Below, piece by piece: positions 2,375-58,910 of a stretch of 64,000 bases of DNA. The notes under the pieces are model-generated. The model had not been told where the DNA came from, did not search any database, and saw only the letters and a program-made list of their open reading frames with translations. The number at the start of each line of letters is the position of its first letter. Within the stretch, counting starts at the first letter, position 1. Source of the stretch: an uncultured virus (IMG/VR IMGVR_UViG_3300026522_000846) (lineage: Duplodnaviria; Heunggongvirae; Uroviricota; Caudoviricetes). The translations under genes were made by a program, and so were the position numbers. The stretch lies in the IMG/VR virus record IMGVR_UViG_3300026522_000846; one strand, given 5' to 3'.

Positions 2375-2897
2375 TTATTGCTTCCTTTCTTGCTTAAGTT
2401 CCTGTTGTCGTTCTCTTTCTTCCATCAAAATCTGCCCCAGTAAGTTTTGTCCATGCCATGTTCCATCGCTCGTCTGCACCATACCCCATGTCTTATCATT
2501 CCATGTATTTCCCTCGATTAGAATGACGTTTCCCGTAGCACAGAGCCTGTCCGACAATTCCGGATGCTGACTGAATTTTTCATGAACCAAGTTTCGCATG
2601 ACAGATACTTTGACCTTTTCCCAATCATGTCGAAGAGGGATCGACCGTCCGAAACGTCTAGCATCTCCGGAAGATAGAGAGGAAAACTGCTTTTGCAGTT
2701 CACAGTCGGTCGTCTAATGGAACGATACTGAAGGTATCGTTCCTAGGGAAGGATCTACGATCCTTTCCAATTTGTGCCTGAAATGCCACTTCGTTGCTCG
2801 GATAGGTGATTCCATGATAAACAACAGGAGCAGGATAATAATTTGACAGAAACCAATATTGATCTTGAAAGGTCGTAATGTTAATAAGTTCCATCAA
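2375..2897 (-). pseudogene. NADAR (YbiA-like) family gene frameshifted by a family-A element
   Basis: N-terminal part FLSNYYPAPV...EVAFQAQ and C-terminal part KFSQHPEL...IEGNTWNDKTWG...GQNLLGQILM are in different frames; removing 2716-2770 restores one ORF. Confidence 0.88.
2717..2770. repeat. Family-A double-hairpin element
   Basis: ATGGAACGATACTGAAGGTATCGTTCC-TA-GGGAAGGATCTACGATCCTTTCCAA. Confidence 0.92.
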
Positions 2898-3112
2898 ACT
2901 TCATCTCCCGTCTCTTTGTCTACAAATGAAACTTTCAGATCACAGCCGAGGACTCCTGCGATCCGTTCCAGTTCGGACTGTTTGAAGTCACACCTTGTCA
3001 TCTTGTTGGATAAATTCTGCCGTGTCTGGTGTGTTCTTTCGGCAATGTTACCCATAGTCATGCCTTTTCGACCTGCCAGAAATCGGATCTTCTCTGATGT
3101 GCTCATTTCCAT
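2894..3112 (-). CDS. XRE-family HTH transcriptional regulator
   Basis: 72 aa with HTH-like MTMGNIAERTHQTRQNLSNKM; upstream TTGACA-17-TAGAAT on the minus strand (about 3160-3188). Confidence 0.8.
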   Translation of the reverse strand: MEMSTSEKIRFLAGRKGMTMGNIAERTHQTRQNLSNKMTRCDFKQSELERIAGVLGCDLKVSFVDKETGDEV

Positions 3113-3267
3113 TTCGATTCCCTCCTTTCCTTTGTACTTTGTACTTTCCTTTGTACGTTATTCTACATTATACACTCAAAAATGTCAAATCAAAGCGTTT
3201 CTTTTCGTTTTTCATCATTTTCTTTCCGTTTGTATCTGACCAATAATATCCAATTTTTTTGCATCTA

Positions 3268-3320
3268 ATGGAAAGGGACTAAAGCCCCTTTCCTAGGAGT
3301 GATGCAAAGCATCACTCCAT
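3268..3320. repeat. Family-A double-hairpin element (intergenic)
   Basis: ATGGAAAGGGACTAAAGCCCCTTTCC-TA-GGAGTGATGCAAAGCATCACTCCAT. Confidence 0.92.
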
Positions 3321-3407
3321 CTTTTAATAGATTTTACGCATAGAAATATTGTAAGGACAGGAGCAGAAACAAGCAAAAAAACAGGAAAACAGATAAGGAG
3401 CTACATC

Positions 3408-3614
3408 ATGAATACAATGAACACCTACGGCTATGCCGTGTTCTATAAGGCAGAGAAACCGCCCTTGCACGTTGTTGCAATCTATTCCGAGATCCATATT
3501 GCCTTCAACGTCTTCGACAATGCTCGGGATGCAAGCGATTACATTCGGGACAACTGCAACCATGTGACCTACAATCCGATTTCGATTTTGAGAGCGACTT
3601 TGGCGACCTGCTAA
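3408..3614 (+). CDS. Small hypothetical protein
   Basis: AAGGAG RBS; first of a co-oriented block of small ORFs. Confidence 0.6.
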   Translation: MNTMNTYGYAVFYKAEKPPLHVVAIYSEIHIAFNVFDNARDASDYIRDNCNHVTYNPISILRATLATC

Positions 3615-3746
3615 AGACTTATCAGAACGCAAGCGAAAGTCAGTTGTTCAAAGGCACAAACAACCAGTTGTACATCCATAACAGATCAACGGTAGACAAC
3701 AAGGAAGAAAAAGAACCAGAGTACGATAGATAAGGTCGGTCAGGAT

Positions 3747-3941
3747 ATGAAATACGGTATTTATCGGTTGGATGAAACAAACTATACAACATACTGGGAA
3801 TACCCGCTTGATCTCAATGAAAAGGTGGAAAAGAACGGGTTTGTGAAGATAGGGGAAACGGATACAAGGCTTGAAGCCATGAAAGTAGTACATCCGCTAT
3901 ACAAACGTGCAGTATGGTTAAACAGGCAAAGCAACGTCTGA
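3747..3941 (+). CDS. Small hypothetical protein, paralog of 58668..58910
   Basis: Shares the KYG(I/V)Y...GFVK(I/V)xET(D/E)T..EA pattern with the ORF at 58668. Confidence 0.65.
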   Translation: MKYGIYRLDETNYTTYWEYPLDLNEKVEKNGFVKIGETDTRLEAMKVVHPLYKRAVWLNRQSNV

Positions 3942-3942
3942 A

Positions 3943-4212
3943 TTGCATCAATGTGAGCTGATAGAAAAGGAAGAAAACAGTATGAAGTTAGTCATTGAAA
4001 TACCAAAAGAATTTGAATGTGACTGGAACGGCAATCAGTTTCAGGGCGGTCGGTTTCAGGATTGTTTCGAGCGTGTACTCGCAGATTTACGAGATTCGTC
4101 TTGTATCTCCGGTAACTATGAGAAAGAAACCCTTGAAATGCTCAAAACCGCCTTTCGTGATGCAAAGGAAGAGGATAAGGAACACAATCAAAACGAAGAA
4201 ATAGAGAGGTAA
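3943..4212 (+). CDS. Small phage-like hypothetical protein (true start probably MKLVIEIPKE)
   Basis: RBS upstream of the internal ATG; ends in EEIER. Confidence 0.65.
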   Translation: MHQCELIEKEENSMKLVIEIPKEFECDWNGNQFQGGRFQDCFERVLADLRDSSCISGNYEKETLEMLKTAFRDAKEEDKEHNQNEEIER

Positions 4213-4237
4213 TTCTTATGAATATTCAAATAATGAT

Positions 4238-4633
4238 ATGAACTCGGTACTGAACGACCTTGAATTGTTTACGGATCAGTCAGACTGGTCACTCGTGGAC
4301 TGGTTACTGGCAATTAAGAACAAGGCAGTTGCCTTTGATCCAAAGTATTGTGCCGTCAGGATCGATCACGAATGGCTCAATGTTGTGAACGGCGGGGTTT
4401 TATCCCCAGACATTGACACCGTGATCGACAAGGTGAAGAGCCTTCCTACCGAGTACCGTAACTTCCCGAATGATTACACGGAAATTAAAGCGGATGTGTT
4501 CGAGAGAGAGTTGTTTTTCAATACACATTATGTCGCAAAACGACAGTACAAAAGCATTGAGAATACACTTTTCCGTGTGTCACCAAAACAATTTCTTTCT
4601 ATTTTTACTGATTTTCTTTCCGTTTATGCTTGA
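4238..4633 (+). CDS. Hypothetical protein
   Basis: 131-aa ORF in the co-oriented block. Confidence 0.6.
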   Translation: MNSVLNDLELFTDQSDWSLVDWLLAIKNKAVAFDPKYCAVRIDHEWLNVVNGGVLSPDIDTVIDKVKSLPTEYRNFPNDYTEIKADVFERELFFNTHYVAKRQYKSIENTLFRVSPKQFLSIFTDFLSVYA

Positions 4634-4661
4634 CAAATTACACGATACAGTGTAATATAAT
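4630..4661 (+). promoter_or_regulatory. SigA-type promoter
   Basis: TTGACA, 17-nt spacer, TAATAT (overlapping a TATAAT). Confidence 0.55.
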
Positions 4662-4683
4662 GTCATAAGGTAAAGGGAAATGG

Positions 4684-4923
4684 TTGACAGACCGAAAGGA
4701 GAACAACATGGAGTACACACATTCTGAAAAGGAAGAACATTATCGTGATTTGCTGAATCAGATTATTGATCATGTATCGAACTGTGAAAACACTTCCACC
4801 ACGATAAAGACCTTACTGTACTGGGGTTTTACCGTAGAAGATTTGGAACAGGACTTCAACTTTGAAGAAACCGAAGTGAAAGACTGCTCGGAAGACATGG
4901 ATGATTTCGATCCGATCTATTGA
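4684..4923 (+). CDS. Small acidic hypothetical protein
   Basis: AAGGAG RBS before MEYTH. Confidence 0.6.
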   Translation: MTDRKENNMEYTHSEKEEHYRDLLNQIIDHVSNCENTSTTIKTLLYWGFTVEDLEQDFNFEETEVKDCSEDMDDFDPIY

Positions 4924-4947
4924 TTCCACAGAAAGGAAAGACGGCAT

Positions 4948-5199
4948 ATGACTTTGAAAGATTTTTTGGAAGTAGATTTGTATCCGGAAGATCCGGTGGT
5001 TTTACACATCTATATGGGAGACGGAAGGTATCAGACTTTTCATTCTTATGTTAAGGATTTTATAGATGATAATCGTTTTTACGATTGCGATGTTAATGAT
5101 TATGGAGATGACCATGATTACGGTTGCAGATACATTATGTGTGACGGATTGGGAACCGTTGATTATGGCGATATTTACGACAGCGAATGGCAATATTGA
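4948..5199 (+). CDS. Small acidic hypothetical protein
   Basis: AAGGA RBS; D/Y-rich. Confidence 0.6.
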   Translation: MTLKDFLEVDLYPEDPVVLHIYMGDGRYQTFHSYVKDFIDDNRFYDCDVNDYGDDHDYGCRYIMCDGLGTVDYGDIYDSEWQY

Positions 5200-5380
5200 G
5201 TAGACCTTAAATATCAAAGGGAAAGAGAATGGAGAGGACAGGCAAGATGAAAAATCAGTCCGTGTTGTTGGCAAAAGAAACTGAAGATGGCTATATTTCG
5301 CTAGGAACAATCACACTCATGTCGGACAGGTCGAATGACGCTGATAAACCAAAAAAGAAGAGCGATGGAAAGGCAGAGCA

Positions 5381-5635
5381 ATGAAAGAACAGTTCATTTG
5401 GTTTACCAAAGACCTAGACGGTTGGAATGATGGGTACACCGTGGTTGCCAGAGTGTACGGCAAGGAACTGACAGACGGAACCATCGACCAAGTCAAGGAT
5501 GCAATTTGGGATTACATGAACGAAACCGAAGGCGAGTGGAATGACAATGGACGCCTTGACGTTGCACAAAAGCAGTTGGAAAAAGAAGGCTACAAGGTCG
5601 ATTGGATCAAGGCAGATGCGGAAATCTTCATTTGA
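5381..5635 (+). CDS. Small hypothetical protein
   Basis: RBS; co-oriented block. Confidence 0.6.
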   Translation: MKEQFIWFTKDLDGWNDGYTVVARVYGKELTDGTIDQVKDAIWDYMNETEGEWNDNGRLDVAQKQLEKEGYKVDWIKADAEIFI

Positions 5636-9432: not shown

Positions 9433-9538
9433 CAGTTCTTTTAGAGTCGTTCCCAGGAGTGGATTAAAAAATCCACTCCATTCAATGGAGCGAATCGCGG
9501 ATTCGCTCCTAGGAACGATTCCTTTAGAATCGTTCCAT
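9433..9538. repeat. Two tandem family-A elements (first one degenerate)
   Basis: 9485-9538 ATGGAGCGAATCGCGGATTCGCTCC-TA-GGAACGATTCCTTTAGAATCGTTCCAT, flanked by TCA on both sides. Confidence 0.88.
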
Positions 9539-9705
9539 TCAACGACATTAGTCGTGAGAGAACGTTTCTTTAATTCCGCTCAATACATACAGAGCACACG
9601 GAATGGCGATCGAGTTGCCCCACATCTTATACTCTGCACTATCGCTATGAGGACTTTTCAGCCATTTCTTGATCTGATTGTCGGTCTTGGGTTTGGTCGC
9701 ATGTA

Positions 9706-9759
9706 ATGGAAAGGATTTACGATCCTTTCCTAGGAACGGTTCTTTCAGAACCGTTCCAT
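9706..9759. repeat. Family-A element in-frame in the methyltransferase C-terminal part
   Basis: Encodes NGTVLKEPFLGKDRKSFPL. Confidence 0.92.
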
Positions 9760-10470
9760 TACTAACCAGACGGCGGTGTGTTTCAAAAACATCCCTCCAA
9801 AACGCCATCTCCTCATCGGTTGGCTCATCCGTTCCAAGGTTATCGCATCAATCGTCAGGGAATCCTTGCAGTCTGGCACACTCGGTCGGGGTGAGCCTAC
9901 GGACAATATATTTCGATTCTTTTTCTCCTGCTACAGTCGGGGGATCCTTATAATCGGTACTCACTAATGTATTTGCTATATTTTCTCCCACTGTTGTATG
10001 GCGTTTGCTTTTACTCGTACTGTAGACAAGGGTTTCAGAACCACCACCGTATATTCCGCCTCTGGCACGAAGAGAGCTACTAACACTGTTTTTCGTATAT
10101 TTATCATAGGCATCCTGCGAAAATGCTACCGCATGGCGGTCGATGGTATTGAGCGTAAAGCTGACATCTTCATTGATACCGCTCCCCTGCGGTCCGTTCT
10201 TATCCGCCCTCCCGATCATGGAACCCTGTACCGATACCACGGCGATACCACCCTGATTACAGGCCGGATTCCCACCACTTGTGTCAAGTGTCCGTGAGGT
10301 GGGAGCGACCTCAACGGGACCGGTATAATATCCGATGGAGCGGCTCTTGGCGGAGTGTTCGGTACAAAAGCCCGCCGCACCCATGACCACGGGAGGATGC
10401 CCATGATCCTGCGCACGGAGCGTTCCCGTTACATCCTCGGACACATCCATTCGGTCGCCACCCTGGTCGT

Positions 10471-11316: not shown

Positions 11317-12252
11317 TTATCGCTCGATTTCTTCCTGTGTTTCTCTTTGTACCTGTTCTTTGAATGGTTCTGTTGTTACGACAAAGACTCTTGCTCCTGT
11401 TGTCCGTGTCTCTTTATACAGGTCGTAGGGAAGAGCAGATAGGTCATGTCCGTTCGTTCCACCATAGGTTCTGTCCATAGTGGCAAGGTCATCGCTATGC
11501 CAAAACCATGAAAGCTGCCACACAGCTTCGTTTCCCTTGGTATATGGTGAAAGAATCAGATAGTCATTACCATGGTCGAACTCCAAGGCGGTGAACCCCG
11601 GAGTGTCAAGGATCGATTTCCACATAGCAACACGTTCTGCTTCGATTTTGTCAGCTTCTTCGATTTCCTCCTCCGTACCATTAAAATAAACGGCCGGTTT
11701 GGAACGGTCAGACGGAATCATCACAATACGTTCTTGGGTATGGGGTTCCCGCTCCTTTGTGACTGCCTGTTCGATTTGTCGTACCAAAAGATTTGGTTGG
11801 GTATTGATGTCAATTCTCTCTCCGAACCATGTACCATGCCTCGCATTCACATCGTTTATGACCTTGATTCCGATGCCACCCCATTCATGTAGGTTGTGGG
11901 AATAGTCATCAAGCAGGACATCGTTTGGTCGAATGTCGTGGATATACCTGTCTTTCGGTACTCCGCAGGGGCAAAAGATACGATGTGCCTTGTCGATCTC
12001 CGGAAGGTCAATGTCCAGTCTCTGATTTTTCTCTGCAAGGGCATAAGGGTTTTCTTCATTTGACAGGACGGCAGACAGGATATAAACGTCATATCTGTCG
12101 TCTTTTACCAATTCCTTTACCGCTTTTACGATGTTCTTCTGCGGTTTCAGTGTCAGGTAGTAATACTGTTCGAAAATAGCTTCATAGGGAACGTCTTTCC
12201 GCCATTCATAAAGCGTTCCATCCATGTCGACAAAGATACGCTGCTTTTCCAT
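11317..12252 (-). CDS. HAD-superfamily 5'(3')-deoxyribonucleotidase-like protein with a C-terminal extension
   Basis: IFVDMDGTL and VLLDDYSHNL motifs. Confidence 0.75.
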   Translation of the reverse strand: MEKQRIFVDMDGTLYEWRKDVPYEAIFEQYYYLTLKPQKNIVKAVKELVKDDRYDVYILSAVLSNEENPYALAEKNQRLDIDLPEIDKAHRIFCPCGVPKDRYIHDIRPNDVLLDDYSHNLHEWGGIGIKVINDVNARHGTWFGERIDINTQPNLLVRQIEQAVTKEREPHTQERIVMIPSDRSKPAVYFNGTEEEIEEADKIEAERVAMWKSILDTPGFTALEFDHGNDYLILSPYTKGNEAVWQLSWFWHSDDLATMDRTYGGTNGHDLSALPYDLYKETRTTGARVFVVTTEPFKEQVQRETQEEIER

Positions 12253-12265
12253 GAAGAATTCCTTT

Positions 12266-12829
12266 CTACGATAAAAAGACTCTCGAACTCGGATAGAGCC
12301 TGAATACGATATGTCCCACGATGTCTTTCCCTTTGACTGGCCCTATTATCCTGCTGTCAACACTATTGTTCCTGTTGTCGCCAAGCACGAAATATTCGTC
12401 TTTTCCGAGTTTTACAGGATTTCCTGCAATACCGGGATCATTCATTTCAGCATTCCCATGAGTGTCGCTTAAAAGTTTGCCGTTTATGTATGTAGCACCC
12501 TTTTTGATGAGAATGGTTTCTCCGGGCAGTCCTATTACTCTCTTTATGAGGTAATACTTTGAACCTTCCTCTTTTGGTACGACTACGATGTCGAACCGTT
12601 TCGGTTTGCTTATTTTGTAGCTTAATTTCTCAAGCACAAGGTTGTCGCCTGACCTTAACGTGTTCTGCATGGAACTTCCCGACACCACTACACCTTGTAT
12701 TAAAAAGCGTACAATGAGTAGTACCAAAACAATTATTGCTATGTTTAATATCAGACCACGCAGGTTCTTCCTGTTTCGTTTTGGTGACTCTTCTATCTTG
12801 GTATTGTCGACATAAGCTTCTTCATTCAT
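12266..12829 (-). CDS. lepB: Signal peptidase I
   Basis: TM helix, SGSSM, IKRVIGLPGE and GDNRNNSVDSR. Confidence 0.93.
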   Translation of the reverse strand: MNEEAYVDNTKIEESPKRNRKNLRGLILNIAIIVLVLLIVRFLIQGVVVSGSSMQNTLRSGDNLVLEKLSYKISKPKRFDIVVVPKEEGSKYYLIKRVIGLPGETILIKKGATYINGKLLSDTHGNAEMNDPGIAGNPVKLGKDEYFVLGDNRNNSVDSRIIGPVKGKDIVGHIVFRLYPSSRVFLS

Positions 12830-14443
12830 AAGATGTAGCGTCAGACACCCACGACTTTAGTCGCGGGAGGAGACGCACCTCCTTTCTATGAGTAAATGTT
12901 TTGCAGGGTTAACAAATTTGAGTTTTTTATAACTGATACCTGCATTTATTTTTGTTCCATCAAGCGTACGCACATCCATGTATCCGGCAGAACGTCTTCC
13001 GAAGATAAAGCACTCCGTACTGTTACATTTGACTTTATCGAACAGTCTGAAGCCTTTAATCTCGTGTTCTGCCTGATTGCGTTTACGGATGCTGCCCTTT
13101 AGTGTCTTGACCTTATGTATTTGCCTGTTGTGGCATCGCACCTTCTTACAGAAGAACCATTCACCAGCGGGTTCTACGTCAGGGTGACCGCTTATACACC
13201 TTGCATCAATGCGGTGATCTTTCGGCAAATCACATTGCTTACGCTTTTCAGCCGTCTTATAACCGTACGTCATGTGGAGCGGGATACCGAGTGCTTTGAG
13301 CCTGTTCCAGACAGCCCATCTCATGATGCCCATGAACGAAGCATCCTGCATAGTCTTTATCTTTGTGTCAGGTCTCATGACCTCGGATTTTCTGCCAGTA
13401 AGAGTTCCTGCGTGGTATGCCTTGTGGCAGTCAGCACAGACGGTTATAAGATTTGCCGGCATATCCGTACCGCCATCCTTGCGTTGCTTTTTGTGGTGTA
13501 CCTGTAGTTGAACGTGTTCTGCACCGCATACGGCACACTTATAACCATCACGCCATTTAACATAAGCTTTGATATTATCAAAGCCTTCTGCTTCCCCATG
13601 CTGATAGTCAGTTCCCGAAGGAGTCTTCATACCAAGGATGTCTGCCTTCAGTTTCTGCGTATCAAAAGGTGCCATCTCAATCGTTATAGTTGTTACAGGG
13701 AGTATCCTACATACATCCTTTACGACTTTAACGTGTGTATCGCACTTTGCCTGAACAGATGGGGCAAGCCATCCTTTCTGCTTGCTATGGACACGGTTCT
13801 GAAAACGTGGCTTCCTGTAACGTGTCTTTCTGCTACGTCTGCTACGCCGTGTTTCTCTCCTAGCCATGAGCAACTTACTGATATCCTGTCTTAAATCTAC
13901 TTGTGCAGAAAGCAGCTCTTTCCTTTCAGTTGTAGCAGATAGACCGATATGCTTACTTCCTGCATCAACGCCAAGGCTTACGGGCTGTGTGTGTTTCCCG
14001 CTGTCGTATGTAAGCCGTATCGTAAACGGATCACGTCTGACAACAACTGCCTTGCCATCCTTTAGAAGATGTCTTACCTTCCCATACCGTTTGGTTGGCA
14101 TGAGAGGGTTTCCATCCTTATCTAATACATAAACCATAAGTTACCTTTCTACTGTACTTAAACAGTAAGCCTTACTACAGTCTTACATTCTGAATTTCAG
14201 ATGTAAAAACCATATCAGTTGTCACACCTTCGCCAATGTTAGAAATGCTTTCCGTACTCGGTCATCTTGGGTTGACTGCGGTTTACCCTCTCACCGCTGT
14301 TTACAGGGCCCGCACAGAGCCGTAGGTTAGGTGCTACGCCCACGGGTGTGATAACATATCTAACGTAGCCTTTATTTCAAGGCTTAGGCTAGTCAATGGA
14401 GCTTTTGATTACAAGCTCGTGACTTTAGTCATGGGTCATTGAC
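12830..14443 (-). mobile_element. IscB (IS200/IS605-superfamily) element
   Basis: Begins GTCAATGACCCATGACTAAAGTCACGAG; ends with the hairpin CCCGCGACTAAAGTCGTGGG just before the lepB ATG. Confidence 0.85.
12857..14137 (-). CDS. iscB: RNA-guided endonuclease IscB
   Basis: PLMP N-terminus, RuvC-I GVDAG, Arg-rich bridge helix, HNH VHH...NLITVCADCH, RuvC-III HRIDA. Confidence 0.95.
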   Translation of the reverse strand: MVYVLDKDGNPLMPTKRYGKVRHLLKDGKAVVVRRDPFTIRLTYDSGKHTQPVSLGVDAGSKHIGLSATTERKELLSAQVDLRQDISKLLMARRETRRSRRSRKTRYRKPRFQNRVHSKQKGWLAPSVQAKCDTHVKVVKDVCRILPVTTITIEMAPFDTQKLKADILGMKTPSGTDYQHGEAEGFDNIKAYVKWRDGYKCAVCGAEHVQLQVHHKKQRKDGGTDMPANLITVCADCHKAYHAGTLTGRKSEVMRPDTKIKTMQDASFMGIMRWAVWNRLKALGIPLHMTYGYKTAEKRKQCDLPKDHRIDARCISGHPDVEPAGEWFFCKKVRCHNRQIHKVKTLKGSIRKRNQAEHEIKGFRLFDKVKCNSTECFIFGRRSAGYMDVRTLDGTKINAGISYKKLKFVNPAKHLLIERRCVSSRD

Positions 14444-14460
14444 TAGAGCAAAGCACACTA
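14150..14460 (-). ncRNA. IscB omegaRNA (HEARO-like); guide about 14444-14460
   Basis: About 300 nt non-coding upstream of iscB with GTCAA...TTGACTAGCCTAAG...CTACGTT...AACATTGGCGAAG, typical of HEARO RNAs. Confidence 0.82.
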
Positions 14461-14702
14461 AAACCGATAGCTATTATCTGTAGTATTGTTAAGAAAGTCG
14501 TACCTATAAGCAGAGTCGACCATGAGAAACTCATGTGTCCAAACACAGTTACTGTCAGTAGAAACAAACCTATAAACATAAGGCTTACCAAAAAGTCTGC
14601 TGTCAGGAATAGAAAAATGACTGACCAGTTAATGGAGTGGATCTTTGATCCACTCCTAGGAACGATACTGAAAGTATCGTTCCAGTTAATTCGTTTACTC
14701 AT
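14436..14702 (-). CDS. Small membrane protein with an in-frame family-A insert
   Basis: Two hydrophobic helices; MSKRINW[19-aa insert]SVIFLF. Confidence 0.65.
   Translation of the reverse strand: MSKRINWNDTFSIVPRSGSKIHSINWSVIFLFLTADFLVSLMFIGLFLLTVTVFGHMSFSWSTLLIGTTFLTILQIIAIGFSVLCSSQ
14632..14685. repeat. Family-A element with a perfect 9-nt direct repeat CCAGTTAAT (period 57)
   Basis: CCAGTTAAT at 14625-14633 and 14682-14690. Confidence 0.92.
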
Positions 14703-14812
14703 ATCAATTTCCTTTCACTTTTGCTTCACTTGTTTTCCAAAATATTTATGAATAAAACGTTAATTTTGAAACAAATAAAAACGCCCAATTCTCAATCAAG
14801 AGAATGAGCGTT

Positions 14813-14841
14813 CCTAGGAACGAACCAAGGGTTCGTTCCAT
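14813..14841. repeat. Family-A single hairpin fused to a terminator-like stem
   Basis: CC-TA-GGAACGAACCAAGGGTTCGTTCCAT followed by a T-run. Confidence 0.8.
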
Positions 14842-14869
14842 TTTTTGTATTATCTTCAGGCGATATGTC

Positions 14870-15526
14870 TTACCTCATAAGGTCGTCATCTCTGGAGTCC
14901 TCTTTTGAGTGCTCTTCGGCGTACTTCTCTCTTGACTCCTTAACAGACTCTACGATCTGCTTTGCAGTCAGGTCGATGTTCTTATACTGTCCGTCATCTT
15001 CCTTTACGGAAACGTGCTTTACTGTGTCGGCACTTCCGACAAGAACATCCTTTGTCTTTCCGTCATTACTGTCATATATCTGTTTCGGTGACGCGGTGAA
15101 TGACGCGTGCTTGCCCTCGTACTCAAATCCTACGGAATAGAACGGACCGTTCTTTCCCTCATGCTCCCAGATAAGTTTGGGTGACACGCCATCGATCCAC
15201 AGAGGCTTCTCGTTTGAGTCCTTTCCCCTGTTCGACTTGAATGCCTCTCTGTTGGCATTGTATGCCTCGGCGATCTTTCCAACCGTCATTCTCTGACTGG
15301 TTTTTGTCTTGGAAAAATACACGCTCATCTCATAATTCGGATCATTGGAAAGCCAGATGTTCTTTCTGCCATCCCTGTCATGCACCGACTTCGGACTTAC
15401 TGTGATGTTTCCAAGCTCGCCGTCAATAAAGACACCGACGCTCACATACGGTCCTTTCTTCCCCTCACGCTCATGAATAAGCTTCGGGCTTACATTGTTA
15501 AGATAAATTCCATTGTTCTCTGCCAT
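14870..15526 (-). CDS. Hypothetical protein with an internally duplicated domain
   Basis: VSPKLIHEREGKKGPYVSVG and VSPKLIWEHEGKNGPFYSVG. Confidence 0.75.
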   Translation of the reverse strand: MAENNGIYLNNVSPKLIHEREGKKGPYVSVGVFIDGELGNITVSPKSVHDRDGRKNIWLSNDPNYEMSVYFSKTKTSQRMTVGKIAEAYNANREAFKSNRGKDSNEKPLWIDGVSPKLIWEHEGKNGPFYSVGFEYEGKHASFTASPKQIYDSNDGKTKDVLVGSADTVKHVSVKEDDGQYKNIDLTAKQIVESVKESREKYAEEHSKEDSRDDDLMR

Positions 15527-15683
15527 AATTTTGATCTCCTTTTTCTTGTAAAGCAGAATGTTTCATTAATGAGTTGTGGACTCATCTTTTATTTTTTTAT
15601 GAATAAAATTTAATTTCTGAAAAATAGCCATTTTAATTAAAAAAATAATAGACGAAAAGAGAGGGAAAATATCCCTCTCTCTC

Positions 15684-16073
15684 CTATTTGGAATATTTTC
15701 CGTTCAAAAAGGTAAATTTGTCCTCATTCCCATACGAACTACCGTATGCTTTCACCATGGCGATTATCCAATCGATCAATCCCCAAATGCCAAAGGTCAT
15801 CCAACCGAATAGTAGCTTGACGACTCCGAGTCCAATCTGTCCTCTGACAAATCGGTCTGCACCGAAACCACCAAGGAAAAAACAAAATACCCATGTGAAC
15901 AAGTTTTTATCAATTGTTTTAACATTTACGCCGACAGGATATGTACCGCCGTTAAATGGAGTGGATCGCAGATCCACTCCTAGGAACGGTTCTTTTGGAA
16001 CCGTTCCATTAAATACAGTTTCTGTCTGTGCATATGGAGTGGAATTTGTTGCCTGTTCTTTTGTTTCTGTCAT
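15684..16073 (-). CDS. TM2-domain membrane protein with an in-frame family-A insert
   Basis: FFLGGFGADRF.RGQIGLGVVKL; insert at 15956-16009. Confidence 0.8.
   Translation of the reverse strand: MTETKEQATNSTPYAQTETVFNGTVPKEPFLGVDLRSTPFNGGTYPVGVNVKTIDKNLFTWVFCFFLGGFGADRFVRGQIGLGVVKLLFGWMTFGIWGLIDWIIAMVKAYGSSYGNEDKFTFLNGKYSK
15956..16009. repeat. Family-A element
   Basis: Flanked by CCGTTAAAT / CCATTAAAT. Confidence 0.92.
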
Positions 16074-16143
16074 ATAAAATTATCCTTTCATAAAAGTGAA
16101 CGTTACTATTTTTTTTATGAATAAAATTTAATTTCTGAAAAAT

Positions 16144-16632
16144 TCATACAAATAAGCTATCCAAGTCATACCGCTTACGGACTCTTAACTTTCGTTCAGG
16201 AATCCGTCGCCCTATATCTCTGGCGTCATTTCGATTGATACTTTTCTTATGGCATAGCCGTGTGAATGTTAAAAACGTTGTTGGTCGAATGGCATAGGTT
16301 TCACCATATTTTCGGAAATGGATAATCAGATAAGACAGTGCATTCCCTTCCGTTTCTGCCTTTTGTAAGGCCTTGACCTGACGGAACTTGATGACGTTAT
16401 TATTCTTGTCACCAAAAGATGCTGATGTACCGCCAACAGACTTTAATTCAACGCAGCACATCTGTCCGTTTTTGCAGAGAATAGCATCGTAAGGACTTTT
16501 AATGCTAAACCGGATACCATCAGGATTATCGTTCTTCCGAAAGCCTGTTGCACTGTCATGCAGTCTCAAATAGTACATTCCATTAGCCGAATGCTTAAAA
16601 TCTTCTTCGAAAAATTTGCCTATATTTCTCAT
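16144..16632 (-). CDS. recU: RecU-like Holliday junction resolvase
   Basis: GKFFEEDF...SPYD...VELKS...RQVKAL PD-(D/E)XK pattern. Confidence 0.72.
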   Translation of the reverse strand: MRNIGKFFEEDFKHSANGMYYLRLHDSATGFRKNDNPDGIRFSIKSPYDAILCKNGQMCCVELKSVGGTSASFGDKNNNVIKFRQVKALQKAETEGNALSYLIIHFRKYGETYAIRPTTFLTFTRLCHKKSINRNDARDIGRRIPERKLRVRKRYDLDSLFV

Positions 16633-16639
16633 ATTTGAC

Positions 16640-17149
16640 CTATTCAGATGTTAACAGCCACACGCAGATGACGGGGTCTTGTGCATTGTCAAAGAATGAC
16701 CAATAGCCGTCACAATAAGTATCTGCATAGATATAATGCCCCTTGACACAGATAAAGGCGTCATCTTCCAAATTGGCAAGGTAGTCCTGAAGAGTCGGGC
16801 GTTCATTCCGCTTAAAATACAGCTTCTTTTTGACAGGGAAAAACTTCCTTACCATACGGTTGAACCCATCCAAGGACAGATAGCCATCATCTTTTAATTC
16901 ATCGGAATAATATTTGCCAACATCTGTGTACCGCTTTTCAATATGGTGGCGACTCTCTGCATCATAAGCATTGCGTGGAACGATTCTTCCGGAGCAGGCG
17001 ATAAATCGCCTGATTCTTTCAGAATCGTTCCTAGGAAAGGGACTAAAGTCCCTTTCCATAGCACACGCCATGGCAGTCACGCTACATGGCGTTCCAACCA
17101 AACAATTATCAGGGGTAATTCTCCAACAATGCACTTCCTTATCTGCCAC
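16640..17149 (-). CDS. Hypothetical protein with an in-frame A+C insert; start affected by the IS607 end
   Basis: CSVTAMACA...GHYIY; the GTG start is supplied by the IS end. Confidence 0.6.
   Translation of the reverse strand: MADKEVHCWRITPDNCLVGTPCSVTAMACAMERDFSPFPRNDSERIRRFIACSGRIVPRNAYDAESRHHIEKRYTDVGKYYSDELKDDGYLSLDGFNRMVRKFFPVKKKLYFKRNERPTLQDYLANLEDDAFICVKGHYIYADTYCDGYWSFFDNAQDPVICVWLLTSE
16975..17059. repeat. Family-A element with a nested 30-nt family-C module
   Basis: CAGGCGATAAATCGCCTG hairpin inside the first A hairpin. Confidence 0.88.
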
Positions 17150-17328
17150 TCAAAATATGTTTAAATATACTCAAACACATCGAGAATTGAAATCCTTGCG
17201 GATACTTCTTACTGCTTCAATGTGTATGTTTTGGCGATTATAAACAATACGCTACTCACAAGTTCGTGTACACTCCACAGTCGTAAATTCCTGCGATAGC
17301 CCGCAGTACATACTTACATTTGCGTTTA

Positions 17329-52706: not shown

Positions 52707-52710
52707 TGAA

Positions 52711-52763
52711 ATGGAATGAACCTTTGGTTCGTTCCTAGGAAAGGGACATTAGTCCCTTTCCAT
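52711..52763. repeat. Family-A element (intergenic)
   Basis: ATGGAATGAACCTTTGGTTCGTTCC-TA-GGAAAGGGACATTAGTCCCTTTCCAT. Confidence 0.92.
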
Positions 52764-52787
52764 TATTAAAAAAGAAAGGACAAAACC

Positions 52788-55694
52788 TTGATTATTTATA
52801 ATGGTGAAGCACAAAAATACACTCCGAAACATATGAAGTCGGACAATATCATAATCGACATCACGTCAGATAAACCGCTGACTGATGTTCTTACCATGAT
52901 CGAACAGGACAGACCTTATCCTGACGGTACAACGGTAAAAACATTTCACCCGTCAGGCAGAGAACCGCATTATGAATTGGATAACCCCGCTGTTGGAAAT
53001 GGAACGACTCTTTCAGAGCCGTTCCTAGGAGTGGATCAAAGATCCACTCCATTAAATGGAGTGCCTTATGATAATGAATATCTGACCGAAGAGGACATCA
53101 TCGAAATGGATGATGATTTCTACGAAGAGCCAAGGCTTTTGACAGACTACCGTCCGTTCCGAAATGGTGTTTTATCAAAACAGAACAGCTTTACTGCCTT
53201 TACGCCGTCAAAAAAGACTCTGACGGATGAAATACAGGACGCTCTCGGTATTCTTCCAACCGTCATGGATTTGGATGAGCCGGTGCAGGAGCGAGTCCGC
53301 TTATCGCAGGTCGGAAATGACCTGTTCTGGCATTTCAATGATGACGAAGGACGTATCTCTTCCAAGAACCGTTATCCCGATATTGATACCATTCGATATT
53401 ATGATAAATTCACACCGTATGAAAAACGTGTGGTGACGGAAGGACATATCCATCCGAGAAAGTTCGTCGAATTAAAACGAATGATCGAAGAAAAGCGTCC
53501 GGGATATATCCTGACGAAACAGGCGTTCGAACTCATGAAAGATGATGAGGACGATTACTATATCAGCGGAACGACACCGATCCGTACTTCGGGTTCAAGA
53601 ACGCCTTTGAAAGAGATAATGATATCTCTTATATATCCCTCCATGGAACTTCAGCATCCGACTGAAATGACGGAATGTATTCAAAAATCAGATGCAGAAT
53701 TCAAACGTGTCATCGGGCGTTCGCCAAGGGTACTTAATGAATATGTCGTTGCTCATTGCATGAGAGAAGGACACATCTTGTCGGATGACGAGATTCGGAA
53801 AATGGTCGCCGACTTCTCTCTGCCGAATCTGAGTAAGGTGGCACGGATGCACAACTTCGCCCTGTATGCCCTTGCCGACAAGATACGTTTTCAGGAAACG
53901 CCGAAAGAACATATCGAAGCCTTTGCAACATTCCTTGATCCGAATAAGATAAATCTGTATGAAAAACGAGGGTTCTTTGCATGGTACAATGCTCATAAGA
54001 ATATTAAAACGGCAGAACTGATGACGGTCATGGAATCTATTGACGACATCAAGGAGTTCGGTGAAAACAAGTCTGTTACGGAACTGATATATGACATCAG
54101 GCAGAACCGTGGTAAACAGGATGCAAAGCTTTTCAAGCAGGACTTCAACATTGATTTTGCAGACACTGACCTTTCGATCCGTGGAAGAAATATCGAGGTG
54201 ACCGATGGGAAATACACCATTCTGATGTTGGATGCGAATGACTATCGAAATCTTCTGGTCGGCTACGATACCCATTGTTGTCAGCGTTATGGAAATGCGG
54301 GAGAGACTTGTGTCCGTGACATCATCACCAGTCCGACATCAGGAATAACCGCCATTGTCCGAAACCGTGACATGAAAGACGGTAAATGGATCTCGGGCAA
54401 ATGTCTGGCACAGGCTTACACATGGGTAAATGAAGCAAGCAGTACAATAGTATTCGACAATATGGAATTTGCTGACGACAGAAAGGTATCAGAGTTTTCC
54501 GACCTTATCGCTGCATGGGCAGAACATATGCCATATCGGAATATGCACGTTGGTTCAGGCTATAATCAGGGTATGACCGGTTGGGGGATCAGAGTGCCAA
54601 GCACAGTACCGATCCCGACCATGGTGAATGGAAGGCATCCGTACAGCGACTACCATGAGAACGCAAGAGCCTTGAAACAGAATGGCAATCTGATGTTACA
54701 GATCAAGAACCCTGAAAAGATCCATGTAATGGAACGGGAACTTATCCCATCCAAGTACGACATTCTGATGAGACCGGAACTGTCATGGCTTTCCAATGTT
54801 CGACCTACGGTCTTTAACTCTTCGTTATCGCTCTGCGATAACTCAGATACCGCCATGTCCATGCGTGACCGGTTGAGATGGGGGCAGGCGTTCTTGAACG
54901 AGCCTGACAATGCAGACATACAAATGCGGGCGGTTCACATCAATCCGGAGGCTATCAGGTATATCGAACATCCCGATTTATCGGTACAGGAATATATCGT
55001 TCAAACAGAGCCGTCTCTGATACCATCGATACAGAACCCCGATCCGTCCATCTACAATGTGCTTTTGGAAACGGATCCGAGAGCGATACTGACACTGAAC
55101 CACCCGGACAAAGAGGCATGGCAAATTGCTCTTCATGGAAACGGACTGCTTTTGAAAGACTGCCCGTATCACGACAGGGAACTGGTACTCACTGCCGTAG
55201 AACAGAATGGTATTGCAATTCAGTTTGCGGGGAATTTGCAAAATGATCCCGAGGTGCAGATGAAAGCTGTAGAACAAGACCCCCTGGCATTCAAGCATAT
55301 TCAGAACCCGACAGAGGAGGTGACGATCGCTGCGGCAGAGCGTGACATCGACAGCATCACCAAAAAGACTGACCTTCCCCTGTCCACACAGCGGGAATTA
55401 GTCTTGGAGAATCCGACCAATATCCTGAATTTTAAGGAGAAGGCAGATCCGAGTATTGTAAACCTTGCTTTAAGCAGAAACGGACTACTGCTACGGAACT
55501 TCCGTAATGCGGATGAGGAAATGCAGATGACTGCCGTAAGAAACAACGGTCTTGCCATTCGATATATCCGCACACCAAGTATGGACTTACTTAAGGCTGC
55601 ATATGAAAATAATCCTCGTTCCCTTCGGTATATGCGGATCACACCGGAGCAAAAGGCAGAACTGCTTCAGGCGGTCGAAGAGCAGAGTCGTTAA
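52788..55694 (+). CDS. Large hypothetical protein with C-terminal DUF4116-like helical repeats
   Basis: AVEQNGIAIQF / AVRNNGLAIRYI repeats; one A insert and one B insert in frame. Confidence 0.75.
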   Translation: MIIYNGEAQKYTPKHMKSDNIIIDITSDKPLTDVLTMIEQDRPYPDGTTVKTFHPSGREPHYELDNPAVGNGTTLSEPFLGVDQRSTPLNGVPYDNEYLTEEDIIEMDDDFYEEPRLLTDYRPFRNGVLSKQNSFTAFTPSKKTLTDEIQDALGILPTVMDLDEPVQERVRLSQVGNDLFWHFNDDEGRISSKNRYPDIDTIRYYDKFTPYEKRVVTEGHIHPRKFVELKRMIEEKRPGYILTKQAFELMKDDEDDYYISGTTPIRTSGSRTPLKEIMISLIYPSMELQHPTEMTECIQKSDAEFKRVIGRSPRVLNEYVVAHCMREGHILSDDEIRKMVADFSLPNLSKVARMHNFALYALADKIRFQETPKEHIEAFATFLDPNKINLYEKRGFFAWYNAHKNIKTAELMTVMESIDDIKEFGENKSVTELIYDIRQNRGKQDAKLFKQDFNIDFADTDLSIRGRNIEVTDGKYTILMLDANDYRNLLVGYDTHCCQRYGNAGETCVRDIITSPTSGITAIVRNRDMKDGKWISGKCLAQAYTWVNEASSTIVFDNMEFADDRKVSEFSDLIAAWAEHMPYRNMHVGSGYNQGMTGWGIRVPSTVPIPTMVNGRHPYSDYHENARALKQNGNLMLQIKNPEKIHVMERELIPSKYDILMRPELSWLSNVRPTVFNSSLSLCDNSDTAMSMRDRLRWGQAFLNEPDNADIQMRAVHINPEAIRYIEHPDLSVQEYIVQTEPSLIPSIQNPDPSIYNVLLETDPRAILTLNHPDKEAWQIALHGNGLLLKDCPYHDRELVLTAVEQNGIAIQFAGNLQNDPEVQMKAVEQDPLAFKHIQNPTEEVTIAAAERDIDSITKKTDLPLSTQRELVLENPTNILNFKEKADPSIVNLALSRNGLLLRNFRNADEEMQMTAVRNNGLAIRYIRTPSMDLLKAAYENNPRSLRYMRITPEQKAELLQAVEEQSR
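52999..53052. repeat. Family-A element in frame
   Basis: VGNG[TTLSEPFLGVDQRSTPLNG]VP; AAATGGA direct repeat. Confidence 0.92.
54798..54848. repeat. Family-B unit in frame
   Basis: Encodes VRPTVFNSSLSLCDNSD. Confidence 0.85.
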
Positions 55695-57305: not shown

Positions 57306-57464
57306 AAGTCCTTTTCCTCTAAAACCAAGTTGGTTTTTCCCATTTCTATAATTTTTTATGCATAAAAATAAAAAAATGTAGAGAGCGAATATTGCAGAAC
57401 AGCGAATTATTTTTTACTCATAAATTAAATAGAGTAGCGTGAAACATCAAGCAACTTGTTGCTT

Positions 57465-57546
57465 ACTTCGGAGTCTTTGCTCTGCAAAGACTCCGCGTTA
57501 AAGTTCGTAGAACGAACTTCGGTAGCATCATCCCTAGGAAAGGATT
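57465..57546. repeat. Family-B unit plus a family-A remnant in a 5' UTR
   Basis: ACTTCGG direct repeat at 57465 and 57516 (period 51); CCTAGGAAAGGA supplies an RBS-like sequence. Confidence 0.85.
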
Positions 57547-57552
57547 TAATTT

Positions 57553-57840
57553 ATGAACGATAAACTATTGATCACGATCGTTGTGATCTCTGCTGCTATC
57601 GCTATATACCGTGTAATAAGCACTATCCTCATTCAGCACGGTGTGGAACATGGCATGACAGAACATGAAGCACAAAAGCGGTATGACAGTCTCTTCTCCC
57701 TGTTTTTGGCGAGACATCGGGAGAAAAAGGAGAAGCAGACAACGGACGCACTGAACCTGCCAAAGAACGAACCGAAGACAACACAGCGGGTGCAGACCAG
57801 ATGGACGACCATCGGAACTAATGTTCGGAAAGAACGGTAA
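57553..57840 (+). CDS. Small membrane protein
   Basis: N-terminal TM helix. Confidence 0.6.
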   Translation: MNDKLLITIVVISAAIAIYRVISTILIQHGVEHGMTEHEAQKRYDSLFSLFLARHREKKEKQTTDALNLPKNEPKTTQRVQTRWTTIGTNVRKER

Positions 57841-57869
57841 GATATTTTTATCTTTTCTTCTTCTATGGC

Positions 57870-57898
57870 TTGACTTTTATATAATGTAATGCTATTAT
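57870..57898 (+). promoter_or_regulatory. SigA-type promoter for the right-hand small-ORF block
   Basis: TTGACT-17-TATTAT with an extended TG. Confidence 0.55.
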
Positions 57899-58236
57899 AT
57901 AACTATCAAGAGGGAAGAAAAAGAGAAAGGAGAAACAGCATGAAGTCTATAAACAGAAGAGAGATAGAAAGGACAAAAAATATGATGGAATTTGAAATTC
58001 ATACAGAAGAGAACGGAAAAGCGGTTGATTTAGGAATTTACGGAATGGACGAAGAGCATGACGGTTGCACCGATGAGTGCGAAGCGGCGAACAAGGCGGC
58101 AGAAGAACTAGAATCTGATTTTCAATCTGAAGGATATTTCACAGAAATTCAAAGGGTTTTTGAGTTTAATGACCTTCATGTTTGGAATGCTGATGAAAAA
58201 CGTGTAATTACTATCTGGGCGAGCAGAATCGAATAA
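57889..58236 (+). CDS. Small acidic hypothetical protein (internal start likely)
   Basis: AAGGA(G) RBS sequences before internal ATGs. Confidence 0.55.
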   Translation: MLLYNYQEGRKRERRNSMKSINRREIERTKNMMEFEIHTEENGKAVDLGIYGMDEEHDGCTDECEAANKAAEELESDFQSEGYFTEIQRVFEFNDLHVWNADEKRVITIWASRIE

Positions 58237-58285
58237 AATAAAGTTAGCTGACCTATCGGCAAGACGGGGAGAAAAGGATTTATTT

Positions 58286-58594
58286 ATGAATAAAGCAAAG
58301 TTTATCCGCAAGTATTATGGCAAAGGGTATGATAGAGATTTTGTTTATCTCGTATATGAATACAGAGATTATGAGTACACCGTAGAGGAAAATCGTGCAA
58401 AGGGTAATGAGCCTTTGGCTTGGCAGCACAAACGGGAACAGGATCGAATTGACAGGTTGATTGAGGAACAGGACAGACCGAAAAAACCGTACAAATATGA
58501 AGACTCCGCAGAATATAGTTTTGATTTATTTATGAGATATATAAATGGAGACGAAACAGCTTTTAATAAGTCGGACAAGGAGAATGAGAAATGA
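58286..58594 (+). CDS. Phage-like hypothetical protein
   Basis: AAGGA RBS; YEYRDYEYTV. Confidence 0.65.
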   Translation: MNKAKFIRKYYGKGYDRDFVYLVYEYRDYEYTVEENRAKGNEPLAWQHKREQDRIDRLIEEQDRPKKPYKYEDSAEYSFDLFMRYINGDETAFNKSDKENEK

Positions 58595-58667
58595 TAACAG
58601 AAGAACAGACAGACGAGAACTGCGATGTAATTAAAGAGTAAAGACAAGGCAGAATCGGAGAGAGAAA

Positions 58668-58910
58668 ATGTTTAAGTATGGTGTCTATTGTGAAAAAACG
58701 AACCGTACAATCTACCGGGTGTTCTCGTCGGATGTTTTCGAAGAAGCAGAAAGAAAAGGGTTCGTGAAGGTAAGAGAGACAGAAACAGAAATGGAAGCTA
58801 TTCAGGAAGCAAGACGGTTCAATCTGAGCTTTCGTTATACGAAGTGGAACGATACTTTGTATCGTTCCACTTTGCCTTGCAAAAGGCTTCAGAACCGTTC
58901 CATTAGATAA
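58668..58910 (+). CDS. Small protein, paralog of 3747..3941, with a repeat-derived C-terminus
   Basis: C-terminus WNDTLYRSTLPCKRLQNRSIR is encoded by A/B modules at 58844-58903. Confidence 0.65.
   Translation: MFKYGVYCEKTNRTIYRVFSSDVFEEAERKGFVKVRETETEMEAIQEARRFNLSFRYTKWNDTLYRSTLPCKRLQNRSIR

Follow-up and report, generated by a model that had tools for sequence, protein, structure and literature searches.

Family A, a dispersed and probably mobile family of double-hairpin mini-elements on a bacterial plasmid-like replicon

Several kinds of short palindromic element are dispersed through bacterial and organellar DNA, and we compare with them a family of double-hairpin elements (family A) carried by a 64,000-nt stretch of DNA (the window), the IMG/VR record IMGVR_UViG_3300026522_000846. 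Repetitive extragenic palindromic sequences (REP), bacterial interspersed mosaic elements (BIME) and REPINs are imperfect palindromes with a GTAG-type 5' motif, extragenic, chromosomal and present in hundreds of copies, which are mobilised by REP-associated tyrosine transposases (RAYT, of the HUH Y1 type); the pairs in a REPIN are inverted copies that fold together. The insertion sequences (IS) of the IS200/IS605 group, which move by 'peel and paste' (IS608, ISDra2), and the palindrome-associated transposable elements (PATEs) have hairpins at their ends, insert 3' of a specific tetranucleotide without target duplication and are lost seamlessly. Double-hairpin elements in Allomyces mitochondria were reportedly described by Paquin et al. 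2000, and we know of no mobiliser for mitochondrial double-hairpin elements or GC clusters. For yeast mitochondrial GC clusters, unit merger, shuffling, short flanking repeats and recombination hotspots have been described (PMC4478555), and the Rickettsia palindromic elements (RPEs) are given as about 150 bp long and often in frame (PMC10969869). In-frame palindromic repeats are thus known from Rickettsia and fungal mitochondria, with their movement unsettled; those of family A are compact, very dense and reside on a bacterial plasmid-like replicon, and the family is probably a mobile, selfish one.

Architecture and polymorphism of the units

Each unit of family A is laid out as TAATGG-hairpin-CC-TA-GG-hairpin-CCATY and measures 55-58 nt overall. 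Its two modules each take the form GG-stem-loop-stem-CC, with a length of 23, 24 or 25 nt, a stem of 10-11 bp with a fixed GGAnnG foot and a loop of 3-4 nt; the TA between them makes a CCTAGG centre (with rare variants CCCGGG, CCCAGG and CCTGGG), and the pair is flanked by (T/A)AAT on its left side and by ATT or ATC on its right. A first-pass annotation of the window had reported about 30 loci of this kind, and every position that it named does hold an element. The figure fits the units, of which there are about 31 including half, nested and tandem forms, but we count about 25 loci, a density of about one per 2.5 kb. These numbers are far above those in shuffled sequence: the half-unit pattern TCCTAGGANNGN{11,13}CNNTCCA matches 33 times in the window (0 expected), the strict whole-unit pattern AATGG…CCTAGG…CCATT matches exactly 8 times (0 expected), CCTAGG occurs 26 times (6.6 expected, with a maximum of 13 in 100 shuffles), and perfect hairpins of any sequence with a stem of at least 8 bp give 95 rows, compared with 0-6 in 20 shuffles.

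Comparison with close relatives revealed that units are present in some copies of a locus and absent from others. Contig L029 is 99.8-100% identical to the window over 3.5 kb (27410-24056 and 24002-23877) and lacks exactly 57 nt, the unit inside orf96, with its other element loci intact. A more distant relative, X7 (about 97%), keeps this unit and has no gaps over 20651-24829 (window stretches without cover in X7 were left uninterpreted), so that the L029 allele is more likely a loss than an ancestral empty site. In a second case, a contig joint of the roughly 95% identical relative X9 passes from 20591 to 20676 with nine letters, GATGCTGTT, between, and appears to reflect the loss of 20592-20648, the 57-nt unit of a bactofilin gene, together with 18 nt of a nearby low-complexity repeat. 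In a third, L023 carries a second, 56-nt unit that is missing from L022 (97% identical over 2.8 kb) and from L021. Similarly, among 16 aligned homologues of a guanylate-kinase-like protein that holds 39 aa of element-derived sequence, the five closest (90-99% identical) have inserts of 39, 29, 29, 29 and 38 aa, and the remaining 11 (48-76% identical) have none, with flanks that align cleanly; the homologues at 63-76% identity are among those without the 39-aa insert. Empty alleles therefore exist for orf96, for bactofilin, at the L022/L023 locus and in the guanylate-kinase homologues, in support of the first-pass proposal of a mobile micro-element, and it is from this polymorphism that we infer mobility.

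The events also share an insertion signature. Both in-gene events read, on one strand, …CATC/TAATGG…CCATY/…, with an empty allele …CATC/…, and the L023/L022 event reads …CAGT/AAATGG…CCATT/…. The insert thus stands directly after CATC in two and after CAGT in the third of only three events, with junction repeats of 4, 1 and 2 nt over the three. Because the insert begins after a CATY-like word and also ends in one, these repeats need not be target duplications, and since the CATY at the element's own 3' end would recreate the target, tandem arrays such as those seen here are to be expected. Among 64 flanks of 32 double units, CATC is found at -8..-5 in 7 (background 0.0053, P 6e-8) and CATT in 14, the latter mostly where another unit or remnant ends, that is, at tandem joints. 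No orientation bias of the CATC-flanked copies relative to GC skew was seen on inspection by eye.

What is constant in family A is its form more than its letters. Using a script that anchors stems at both ends and allows at most 1 mismatch in a 10-bp stem, we found 48 GG…CC modules in the window, 37 of them perfect, with 19 different 9-nt arms, and the 20 double units display 17 different pairings, in agreement with the earlier statement that at least ten stems occur in many combinations and stay palindromic. When modules from the window, its sister contig and relatives were pooled (88 modules, 30 different 10-nt arms), stem positions 1, 2 and 6 were always G, position 3 was A in 84 of 88, and at each of positions 4, 5 and 7-10 between two and four kinds of Watson-Crick pair were seen and mismatches were few. 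As these modules were chosen for pairing, the pair counts describe the family and are no proof of selection on structure; they were made from both ends by script, MAFFT placing the inner stems of 23- and 25-nt hairpins out of register. The same stem can be found with a loop and with that loop's complement (TAAA/TTTA, AAA/TTT and AAG/CTT), so modules sit in either orientation, independent of their partner. Furthermore, the units at 15956 in a TM2-domain gene and at 43150 in a nuclease gene have in common a derived, imperfect TTTTGG apex in one hairpin, with the loop of the other hairpin inverted, which argues that whole units are copied between unrelated genes and that modules flip. Six units folded as single-stranded DNA all adopted the two-hairpin form (-18 to -23 kcal/mol, z -7 to -9). 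The uniform architecture described in the first-pass annotation needs some correction: it suits the 20 double units in general, but the centre at 20593 is CCCGGG, three units (16975, 25064 and 42451) have hairpins nested in the loop of their left module, and 26206-26335 is a cluster of five hairpins. Tandem units are joined by the palindrome CCATTTAATGG. The loci in the window are as follows, with the strand given for copies that are read in frame:

2716-2771: double unit, hairpins of 25 and 23 nt
3267-3321: double unit (24 and 23 nt), intergenic, between convergent open reading frames (ORFs), with CATC before it
9453-9539: decayed unit with one intact hairpin at 9456-9479 (centre CCTGGG on the other strand), and an intact double unit at 9484-9539
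9705-9760: double unit
14631-14686: double unit, with the IscB/HEARO element about 190 nt away
14812-14842: half unit, one hairpin after a CCTAGG remnant
15955-16010, minus strand: double unit read in frame within the TM2-domain gene (NGTVPKEPFLGVDLRSTPF)
16975-17060, minus strand: double unit in frame in orf169, with a hairpin from another family nested in its left loop
19291-19319, minus strand: half unit in frame in orf310
20592-20648, minus strand: 57-nt double unit centred on CCCGGG and read in frame within the bactofilin gene; absent from the reconstructed X9 allele (about 95% relative)
21626-21654: intergenic half unit
24003-24059, minus strand: 57-nt double unit read in frame within orf96; L029 lacks exactly this unit
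24858-24912: double unit, right hairpin identical to that at 26033, the pair bracketing an orf277 cassette missing in X9
25064-25169: double unit, left loop with an insertion of about 50 nt that holds another hairpin
26030-26058: half unit; X9 has 10 nt in place of 26031-26084
26205-26338: five-hairpin cluster, with two hairpins only at the same place in X9
28112-28167: double unit, with CATC before it
28452-28498, minus strand: double unit, decayed or shortened, close to the end of orf197 and in frame with it
39057-39283: four double units in a tandem array that separates orf328 from the primase-like gene
42451-42565, plus strand: double unit with two nested hairpins in the left loop, adding 39 in-frame residues to the middle of the guanylate-kinase fold
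43149-43204, plus strand: double unit in frame in the Endonuclease_NS_2 gene
43417-43445, plus strand: half unit in frame in the same Endonuclease_NS_2 nuclease gene
52710-52764: intergenic double unit
52998-53053, plus strand: double unit in frame in a 968-aa DUF4116 protein
58843-58871: half unit, a single hairpin with a longer stem

The unit order of the four-unit array is kept in an 88% relative (L020). Just downstream of it, at 39324-39362, the window has about 27 nt more than its sister contig, which resemble a decayed hairpin fragment of the GGAACGAACC type. Two other kinds of hairpin were noticed. A second family with 11-13 bp stems around …CTTTGC-NNN-GCAAAG… and variable outer stems lies at 19391-19417, 37929-37957, 40926-40952 and 57469-57495 (and 26094-26119), and an X9 indel adjoins its copy at 19391. 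A third, small hairpin of the CAGGCGAT-AAA-TCGCCTG type and its relatives (16995-17012, 42470-42530, 28047-28068 and 25108-25126) is mainly nested in family-A loops, and twice in tandem in the guanylate-kinase insert.

Larger differences between relatives were noticed as well. In X9, orf277 and its flanking elements (24854-25995) are missing, with a 29-nt hairpin-like stretch in their place; as orf277 is bracketed by identical 23-nt hairpins (24887 and 26033), the repeats may mediate loss of the cassette. The near-identical metagenome contig L027 has an 80-bp deletion in the first TnpB gene (1349-1428) and lacks a 1.9-kb stretch of small ORFs (3493-5412), and neither deletion has an edge at a family-A element. 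Logan contigs (X3, X5, X7 and X9, over 12000-31999) end or misjoin at 14253, 14813, 17022, 24049, 24886, 25141 and 26290, and from such repeated ends and misjoins at elements we conclude that family A fragments and scrambles short-read assemblies of this replicon. Joints in X9 and other contigs that link distant elements or opposite strands (for example 14684 to 28156, and 24001 with 28114 in both directions) were regarded as assembler chimeras through repeats and were not used.

Copies inside genes and the range of the family

About ten copies had been described as adding residues in frame to unrelated proteins. We confirmed the in-frame reading, and found seven such copies in well-supported genes of the window: one each in the TM2, bactofilin, orf96, guanylate-kinase and DUF4116 genes and two in the nuclease gene (43150 and the half unit at 43420). 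The copies at 2717, 9706, 14632 and 58844 fall within small ORFs that are unsupported as genes. Just outside the window, DnaE also bears an in-frame unit; on the sister contig (L017 4938-8921) this DnaE-type polymerase of 1327 aa has it near the C-terminus, at about residues 1254-1274. As had been noted from the letters, CCTAGG is read as Leu-Gly or Pro-Arg, and no family-A copy lies inside the TnpB or IscB ORFs. The Leu-Gly reading is that of five genes (TM2, orf96, kinase, nuclease and DUF4116) and the Pro-Arg reading that of DnaE, and bactofilin has Pro-Gly from its CCCGGG centre.

All six double units in supported genes pair a 23-nt with a 25-nt hairpin, and with 7 flanking nt, set by the empty sites, these make 57 nt or 19 codons. 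This multiple of three is the length of 6 of 6 in-gene but only 3 of 12 intergenic double units (Fisher one-sided P 0.0045, in a test that omits 4 units in small unsupported ORFs), the other intergenic units being 55, 56 or 58 nt long. Random insertion followed by purifying selection would be expected to leave such a restriction of lengths in genes. An AlphaFold2 model of the guanylate kinase (17 sequences, mean pLDDT, the predicted local distance difference test, of 79) is confident except for residues 86-124; these are the insert, with pLDDT <50 and no secondary structure, and in this one modelled case the insert is predicted to form a disordered loop. In the RNA library X3, contigs match the window perfectly through the in-gene copies, and one record spans 18124-24049, so the elements had not been removed from those molecules; these contigs, with depths between 45 and 945, are no proof of transcription, as they may stem in part from carried-over DNA.

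Genes of the window specify a Rep3 initiator, ParA, an actin-like partition protein, a primase-like protein and three helicases (SNF2, RecD-like and UvrD-like), along with three TnpB proteins and a single IscB, the latter accompanied by its HEARO RNA. Its sister contig in IMG/VR, G001 (51.6 kb; 32% complete by CheckV), is 99.8% identical to window positions 1-39524 and extends 13.7 kb beyond the left end, where the DnaE-type polymerase, RecJ and a glycosyltransferase are encoded, so that about 78 kb of the replicon could be examined in all. No virion genes were seen in these 78 kb, and the nearest Rep in PLSDB (39% identity) is on a 243-kb Roseburia plasmid, a search of which for family-A units found none. 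For these reasons the replicon, which the first-pass annotation had called a plasmid, is better described as a large Lachnospiraceae-type plasmid or phage-plasmid.

Family A has a narrow range in the collections searched. Its abundance in host chromosomes was gauged from species genomes and two metagenome-assembled genomes (MAGs). A generic double-unit pattern matched 4 times in 185,579 species genomes (one genome per species), and 3 of the matches are genuine: a single rumen Lachnospiraceae MAG accounts for two of them and a rumen Clostridiales MAG for the third. The remaining match, in Paenibacillus (L002), arose by chance where there are no hairpins. In total, the two MAGs hold 3 family-A loci in 2.1 Mb and 1 in 1.6 Mb, compared with 40 half-sites in the 51.6 kb of G001 (0 with a control pattern). 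In IMG/VR the double-unit pattern matched G001 only, and in Joint Genome Institute (JGI) metagenomes it matched 13 loci from a handful of samples. A pattern specific for one stem had no match over genome contigs, BLAST of the four-unit array had none against PLSDB and INPHARED, and viral contigs queried with the nuclease and Rep proteins of the window returned no related loci. Word-index searches returned only the nuclease itself for its insert region, and one 95-aa protein with two tandem units for the open frame of the array. A HMMER search of the array peptide against 1.84 billion representatives gave 9 matches, of which the four inspected (P0088, P0089, P0090 and P0092) were unrelated low-complexity repeat proteins. 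No Rfam family reached threshold on the elements, the best E-value on the array being 0.36, far under the gathering scores. The elements thus do not belong to a catalogued REP or MITE (miniature inverted-repeat transposable element) family that is abundant in chromosomes. Of the 24 listed sequencing runs that hold the stretch, 14 are labelled bovine gut metagenome and the others wastewater, metagenome, skin metagenome or with coded organism names. As far as these sequence collections indicate, family A is confined to a few bovine-gut assemblies and to the lineage of this replicon. The literature that we searched describes no such element for bacterial plasmids or phages, an absence that is weakly supported as subscription journals were mostly outside its coverage.

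How the units may move

A co-occurring HUH or RAYT gene, tyrosine recombinase or reverse transcriptase had been named as worth looking for. The window does begin inside a candidate mobiliser:

1-189, minus strand: first 63 codons of an intact IS200/IS605 TnpA (HUH Y1), the gene continuing off the left edge (NF033573, 147.9 bits)

On G001 the complete ORF of this HUH transposase is 163 aa long and matches Pfam Y1_Tnp with an E-value of 6e-44, and both its HVH motif and the region of the catalytic Tyr are present. It is not a RAYT, scoring 34.5 bits on the RAYT model (cut-off 80) and 147.9 bits on the IS200/IS605 model. Neither a DDE transposase, a tyrosine or serine recombinase nor a reverse transcriptase was seen in the window ORFs and nine ORFs beyond (78 kb). 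A 444-aa TnpB follows TnpA, making up an apparently autonomous IS200/IS605 element that straddles the window edge (L032 1417-3260), head to head with a TnpB-only element at 551-1678; the nearest family-A copies to TnpA are more than 2 kb away.

We tentatively favour the view that family A consists of non-autonomous selfish mini insertion elements, defined by structure and moved in trans by an HUH TnpA, and we hold the step of HUH catalysis itself with somewhat more reserve. The element would move as single-stranded, hairpin-folded DNA and be placed just 3' of a CATY tetranucleotide without true target duplication, and the CATY at the 3' end of each copy would recreate the target and so build tandem arrays. 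The IS200/IS605 TnpA on the same replicon would be the preferred catalyst. An HUH enzyme is proposed because a pattern that involves single strands and hairpins, is specific for a target word and leaves no duplication is that of HUH transposition. Modules could be shuffled and loops flipped by recombination, or by template switching, where units share palindromic junctions (TCCTAGGA and CCATTTAATGG), perfect stems could persist through hairpin-templated correction and not selection, and dispersed copies may act as recombination points at which gene cassettes are deleted or swapped.

Several observations weigh against movement by this TnpA, or against the strength of the case for mobility. The hairpins at the ends of the resident TnpA IS and of the IscB element have the form YGYGAC-TTTA-GT and do not resemble family A, the sole overlap being one module type (GGAAAGGGAC…) with the same 10-nt apex, GAC-TAAA-GTC, as the IS ends. 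An IS200/IS605 TnpA normally reads one specific, imperfect hairpin, unlike the 30 different perfect stems seen among the 88 modules of family A. No transposase is tied to family A, for which we infer TnpA as the mobiliser, and the 78 kb examined is only part of a replicon whose estimated length is at least about 150 kb. Only three gain or loss events are available, and their junction repeats also fit microhomology-mediated deletion or template switching. Among these events, the orf96 polymorphism is probably a loss rather than a gain, and the empty bactofilin allele of X9 was pieced together from a table of joints and not observed in aligned reads. In addition, the covariation counts come from modules preselected for pairing, and one active 23+25 subfamily could partly account for the lengths divisible by three in genes.

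The explanation that comes nearest to these data after TnpA-driven movement, possible though rather unlikely in our judgement, is that the units are selfish but enzyme-free, spreading by hairpin-stalled replication with template switching or by short-homology recombination. In the template-switching form, a nascent strand ending in CATY would mis-anneal at the CATY/TAATGG joint of a donor, copy one unit and return via the CATY end of that unit. This predicts the exact insert (TAATGG…CCATY after CATY) and microhomologies of 4, 2 and 1 nt, explains arrays as both donors and products, and allows for the free re-pairing of modules (17 pairings in 20 units), for both loop orientations on the same stem, for hairpins nested in loops and for loss of the cassette between the identical hairpins at 24887 and 26033. 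It is also consistent with the difference between family A and the resident IS ends, and is akin to the behaviour proposed for mitochondrial GC clusters and double-hairpin elements; merger, shuffling and short flanking repeats are described for the GC clusters of yeast (PMC4478555). On the other hand, ectopic switches on 4 nt of homology are rare, and here many independent sites in unrelated genes would be needed; the strict GGAnnG foot (positions 1, 2 and 6 in 88 of 88 modules) resembles a mark of protein recognition, and an HUH enzyme is present on the replicon.

It is improbable, in our view, that mobility is due to another enzyme, whose gene would lie in the other half of the replicon, beyond the 78 kb, or be one of those for family-less proteins; a structure-specific nuclease, an enzyme of the homing type or a DDE transposase that acts on the AATGG/CCATT ends would be examples. 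There is room for one, as 26 of 58 larger and 19 of 22 smaller ORF products have no Pfam family at the thresholds used, and the sister contig is estimated to be less than a third complete; the window also has a RecU-like protein (below the Pfam cut-off), an NS-type nuclease and the three helicases, and the joint of the L023/L022 event has a TA repeat, as with TA-targeting MITEs. Yet the 78 kb hold none of the DDE, tyrosine or serine recombinase or reverse transcriptase genes sought, and the junction repeat varies in length over the three events, unlike a fixed target duplication. Least probable is that the hairpins are functional signals selected in place (for lagging-strand priming or single-strand initiation by the primase, as partition or nucleoid protein sites, or as hairpins that stabilise or terminate transcripts) and not mobile DNA: their fairly regular spacing of about 1 locus per 2.5 kb, the four-unit array directly upstream of the primase-like gene with its order kept in the 88% relative, the conserved stem foot and the position of most intergenic copies between co-directional genes are outweighed by copies inside unrelated coding regions, their dispensability in near-identical relatives, homologues without them, decayed copies, in-gene lengths filtered for multiples of three and stems followed by no T-run.

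Guide RNAs of IscB or TnpB that target family A were considered and dropped, as HEARO and RAGATH-18 sit at the IS elements and not at family A. These IS elements are themselves absent from some relatives. IscB and HEARO form a 1.6-kb insertion (12830-14444) where G001 (99.8%) and X9 have 20 nt that read, on the other strand, as a ribosome-binding region before a signal-peptidase gene, so that the IscB element replaces a short stretch and does not simply interrupt it. The third TnpB element (17134-18587, with its RAGATH-18 RNA at 17209-17281) is absent in X9, which has 18 other letters there, resembling a ribosome-binding region on the other strand.

Returning to the TnpA-driven mini-elements that we favour, it is possible, though rather unlikely, that family A is the smallest transposon yet seen for HUH single-strand transposition, a 57-nt element of a left and a right hairpin only that is placed 3' of CATY and seeds its own arrays. 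If so, the enzyme would read structure and a 4-nt foot, not sequence, and modules would recombine freely; family A would then be a bacterial counterpart and a workable experimental model of mitochondrial double-hairpin elements, whose movement has been unexplained for decades, and a natural generator of 19-residue loops in proteins. Given filled and empty alleles, an insertion signature, a length filter and an HUH gene on the same DNA, the mechanism is directly testable with oligonucleotides and one purified enzyme. Family A also shows a route by which proteins gain new surface loops, and as it marks the edges of gene-cassette differences and breaks short-read assemblies, it matters for reading rumen plasmid and phage metagenomes.

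Comparison with known systems

By possible chemistry, the closest described systems are REP/BIME with RAYT and the miniature elements derived from IS200/IS605, although the defining features that we tested are mostly lacking. Family A resembles REP/BIME in its short palindromes that occur single, paired or clustered, in a conserved foot motif and in a link to IS200-type HUH enzymes and single-strand DNA. It is unlike them in joining two unlike hairpins and in its stems, 37 of 48 being perfect, and its foot is GGAnnG preceded by (T/A)AAT, not an imperfect palindrome with a GTAG motif. Also in contrast to extragenic, high-copy chromosomal REP sequences, at least 7 copies lie in well-supported genes and there are only 1-3 loci per 1.6-2.1 Mb MAG. 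The sole Y1 gene found in the 78 kb scores as IS200/IS605 and not RAYT, and is followed by tnpB.

With PATEs and IS200/IS605 elements, family A has in common hairpins at both ends; a tetranucleotide target, the lack of a duplication and seamless loss may be further likenesses, but the events are only three and fit microhomology models equally well. A tnpA gene, TnpB-only elements and an IscB-only element are found on the same replicon, so that a Y1 HUH TnpA (the 163-aa protein) is available in the same cell. In contrast to PATEs, it is far smaller, its target resembles its own 3' end, its stems are highly variable, and its hairpins are not homologous to the left and right ends of the resident IS, save for the 10-nt apex of one module type. 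Classical MITEs of DDE transposases are also unlike family A, which has only the 5-nt AATGG/CCATT symmetry at its ends and variable junction repeats, and no DDE transposase was found in the 78 kb.

By behaviour, the mitochondrial double-hairpin elements and GC clusters are closest, along with the RPEs. RPEs and family A are both palindromic repeats found in frame, and tolerated, in many unrelated proteins, without a transposase gene of their own. They differ in that RPEs are chromosomal elements of Rickettsia with one long fold and a conserved peptide, whereas family A resides on a plasmid-like replicon and has two independent hairpins with interchangeable stems; its units are 55-58 nt and not 100-150 bp, have no sequence relation to RPEs and lie on a Lachnospiraceae-like replicon. 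The mitochondrial elements differ in being GC-rich islands in the AT-rich DNA of fungal organelles, whereas family A has near-average composition on a bacterial replicon and alone has the fixed GGAnnG foot and the CCTAGG centre; the sequences are presumably unrelated. What they have in common with family A is elements of tens of nt made of hairpin modules, dispersed in spacers and coding regions of one small replicon to which they are confined, whose modules merge, shuffle and nest, with short direct repeats at the joints and recombination hotspots that make indels. Family A shares with the mitochondrial elements a dispersed and polymorphic unit, made of two short neighbouring hairpins, that also enters coding regions.

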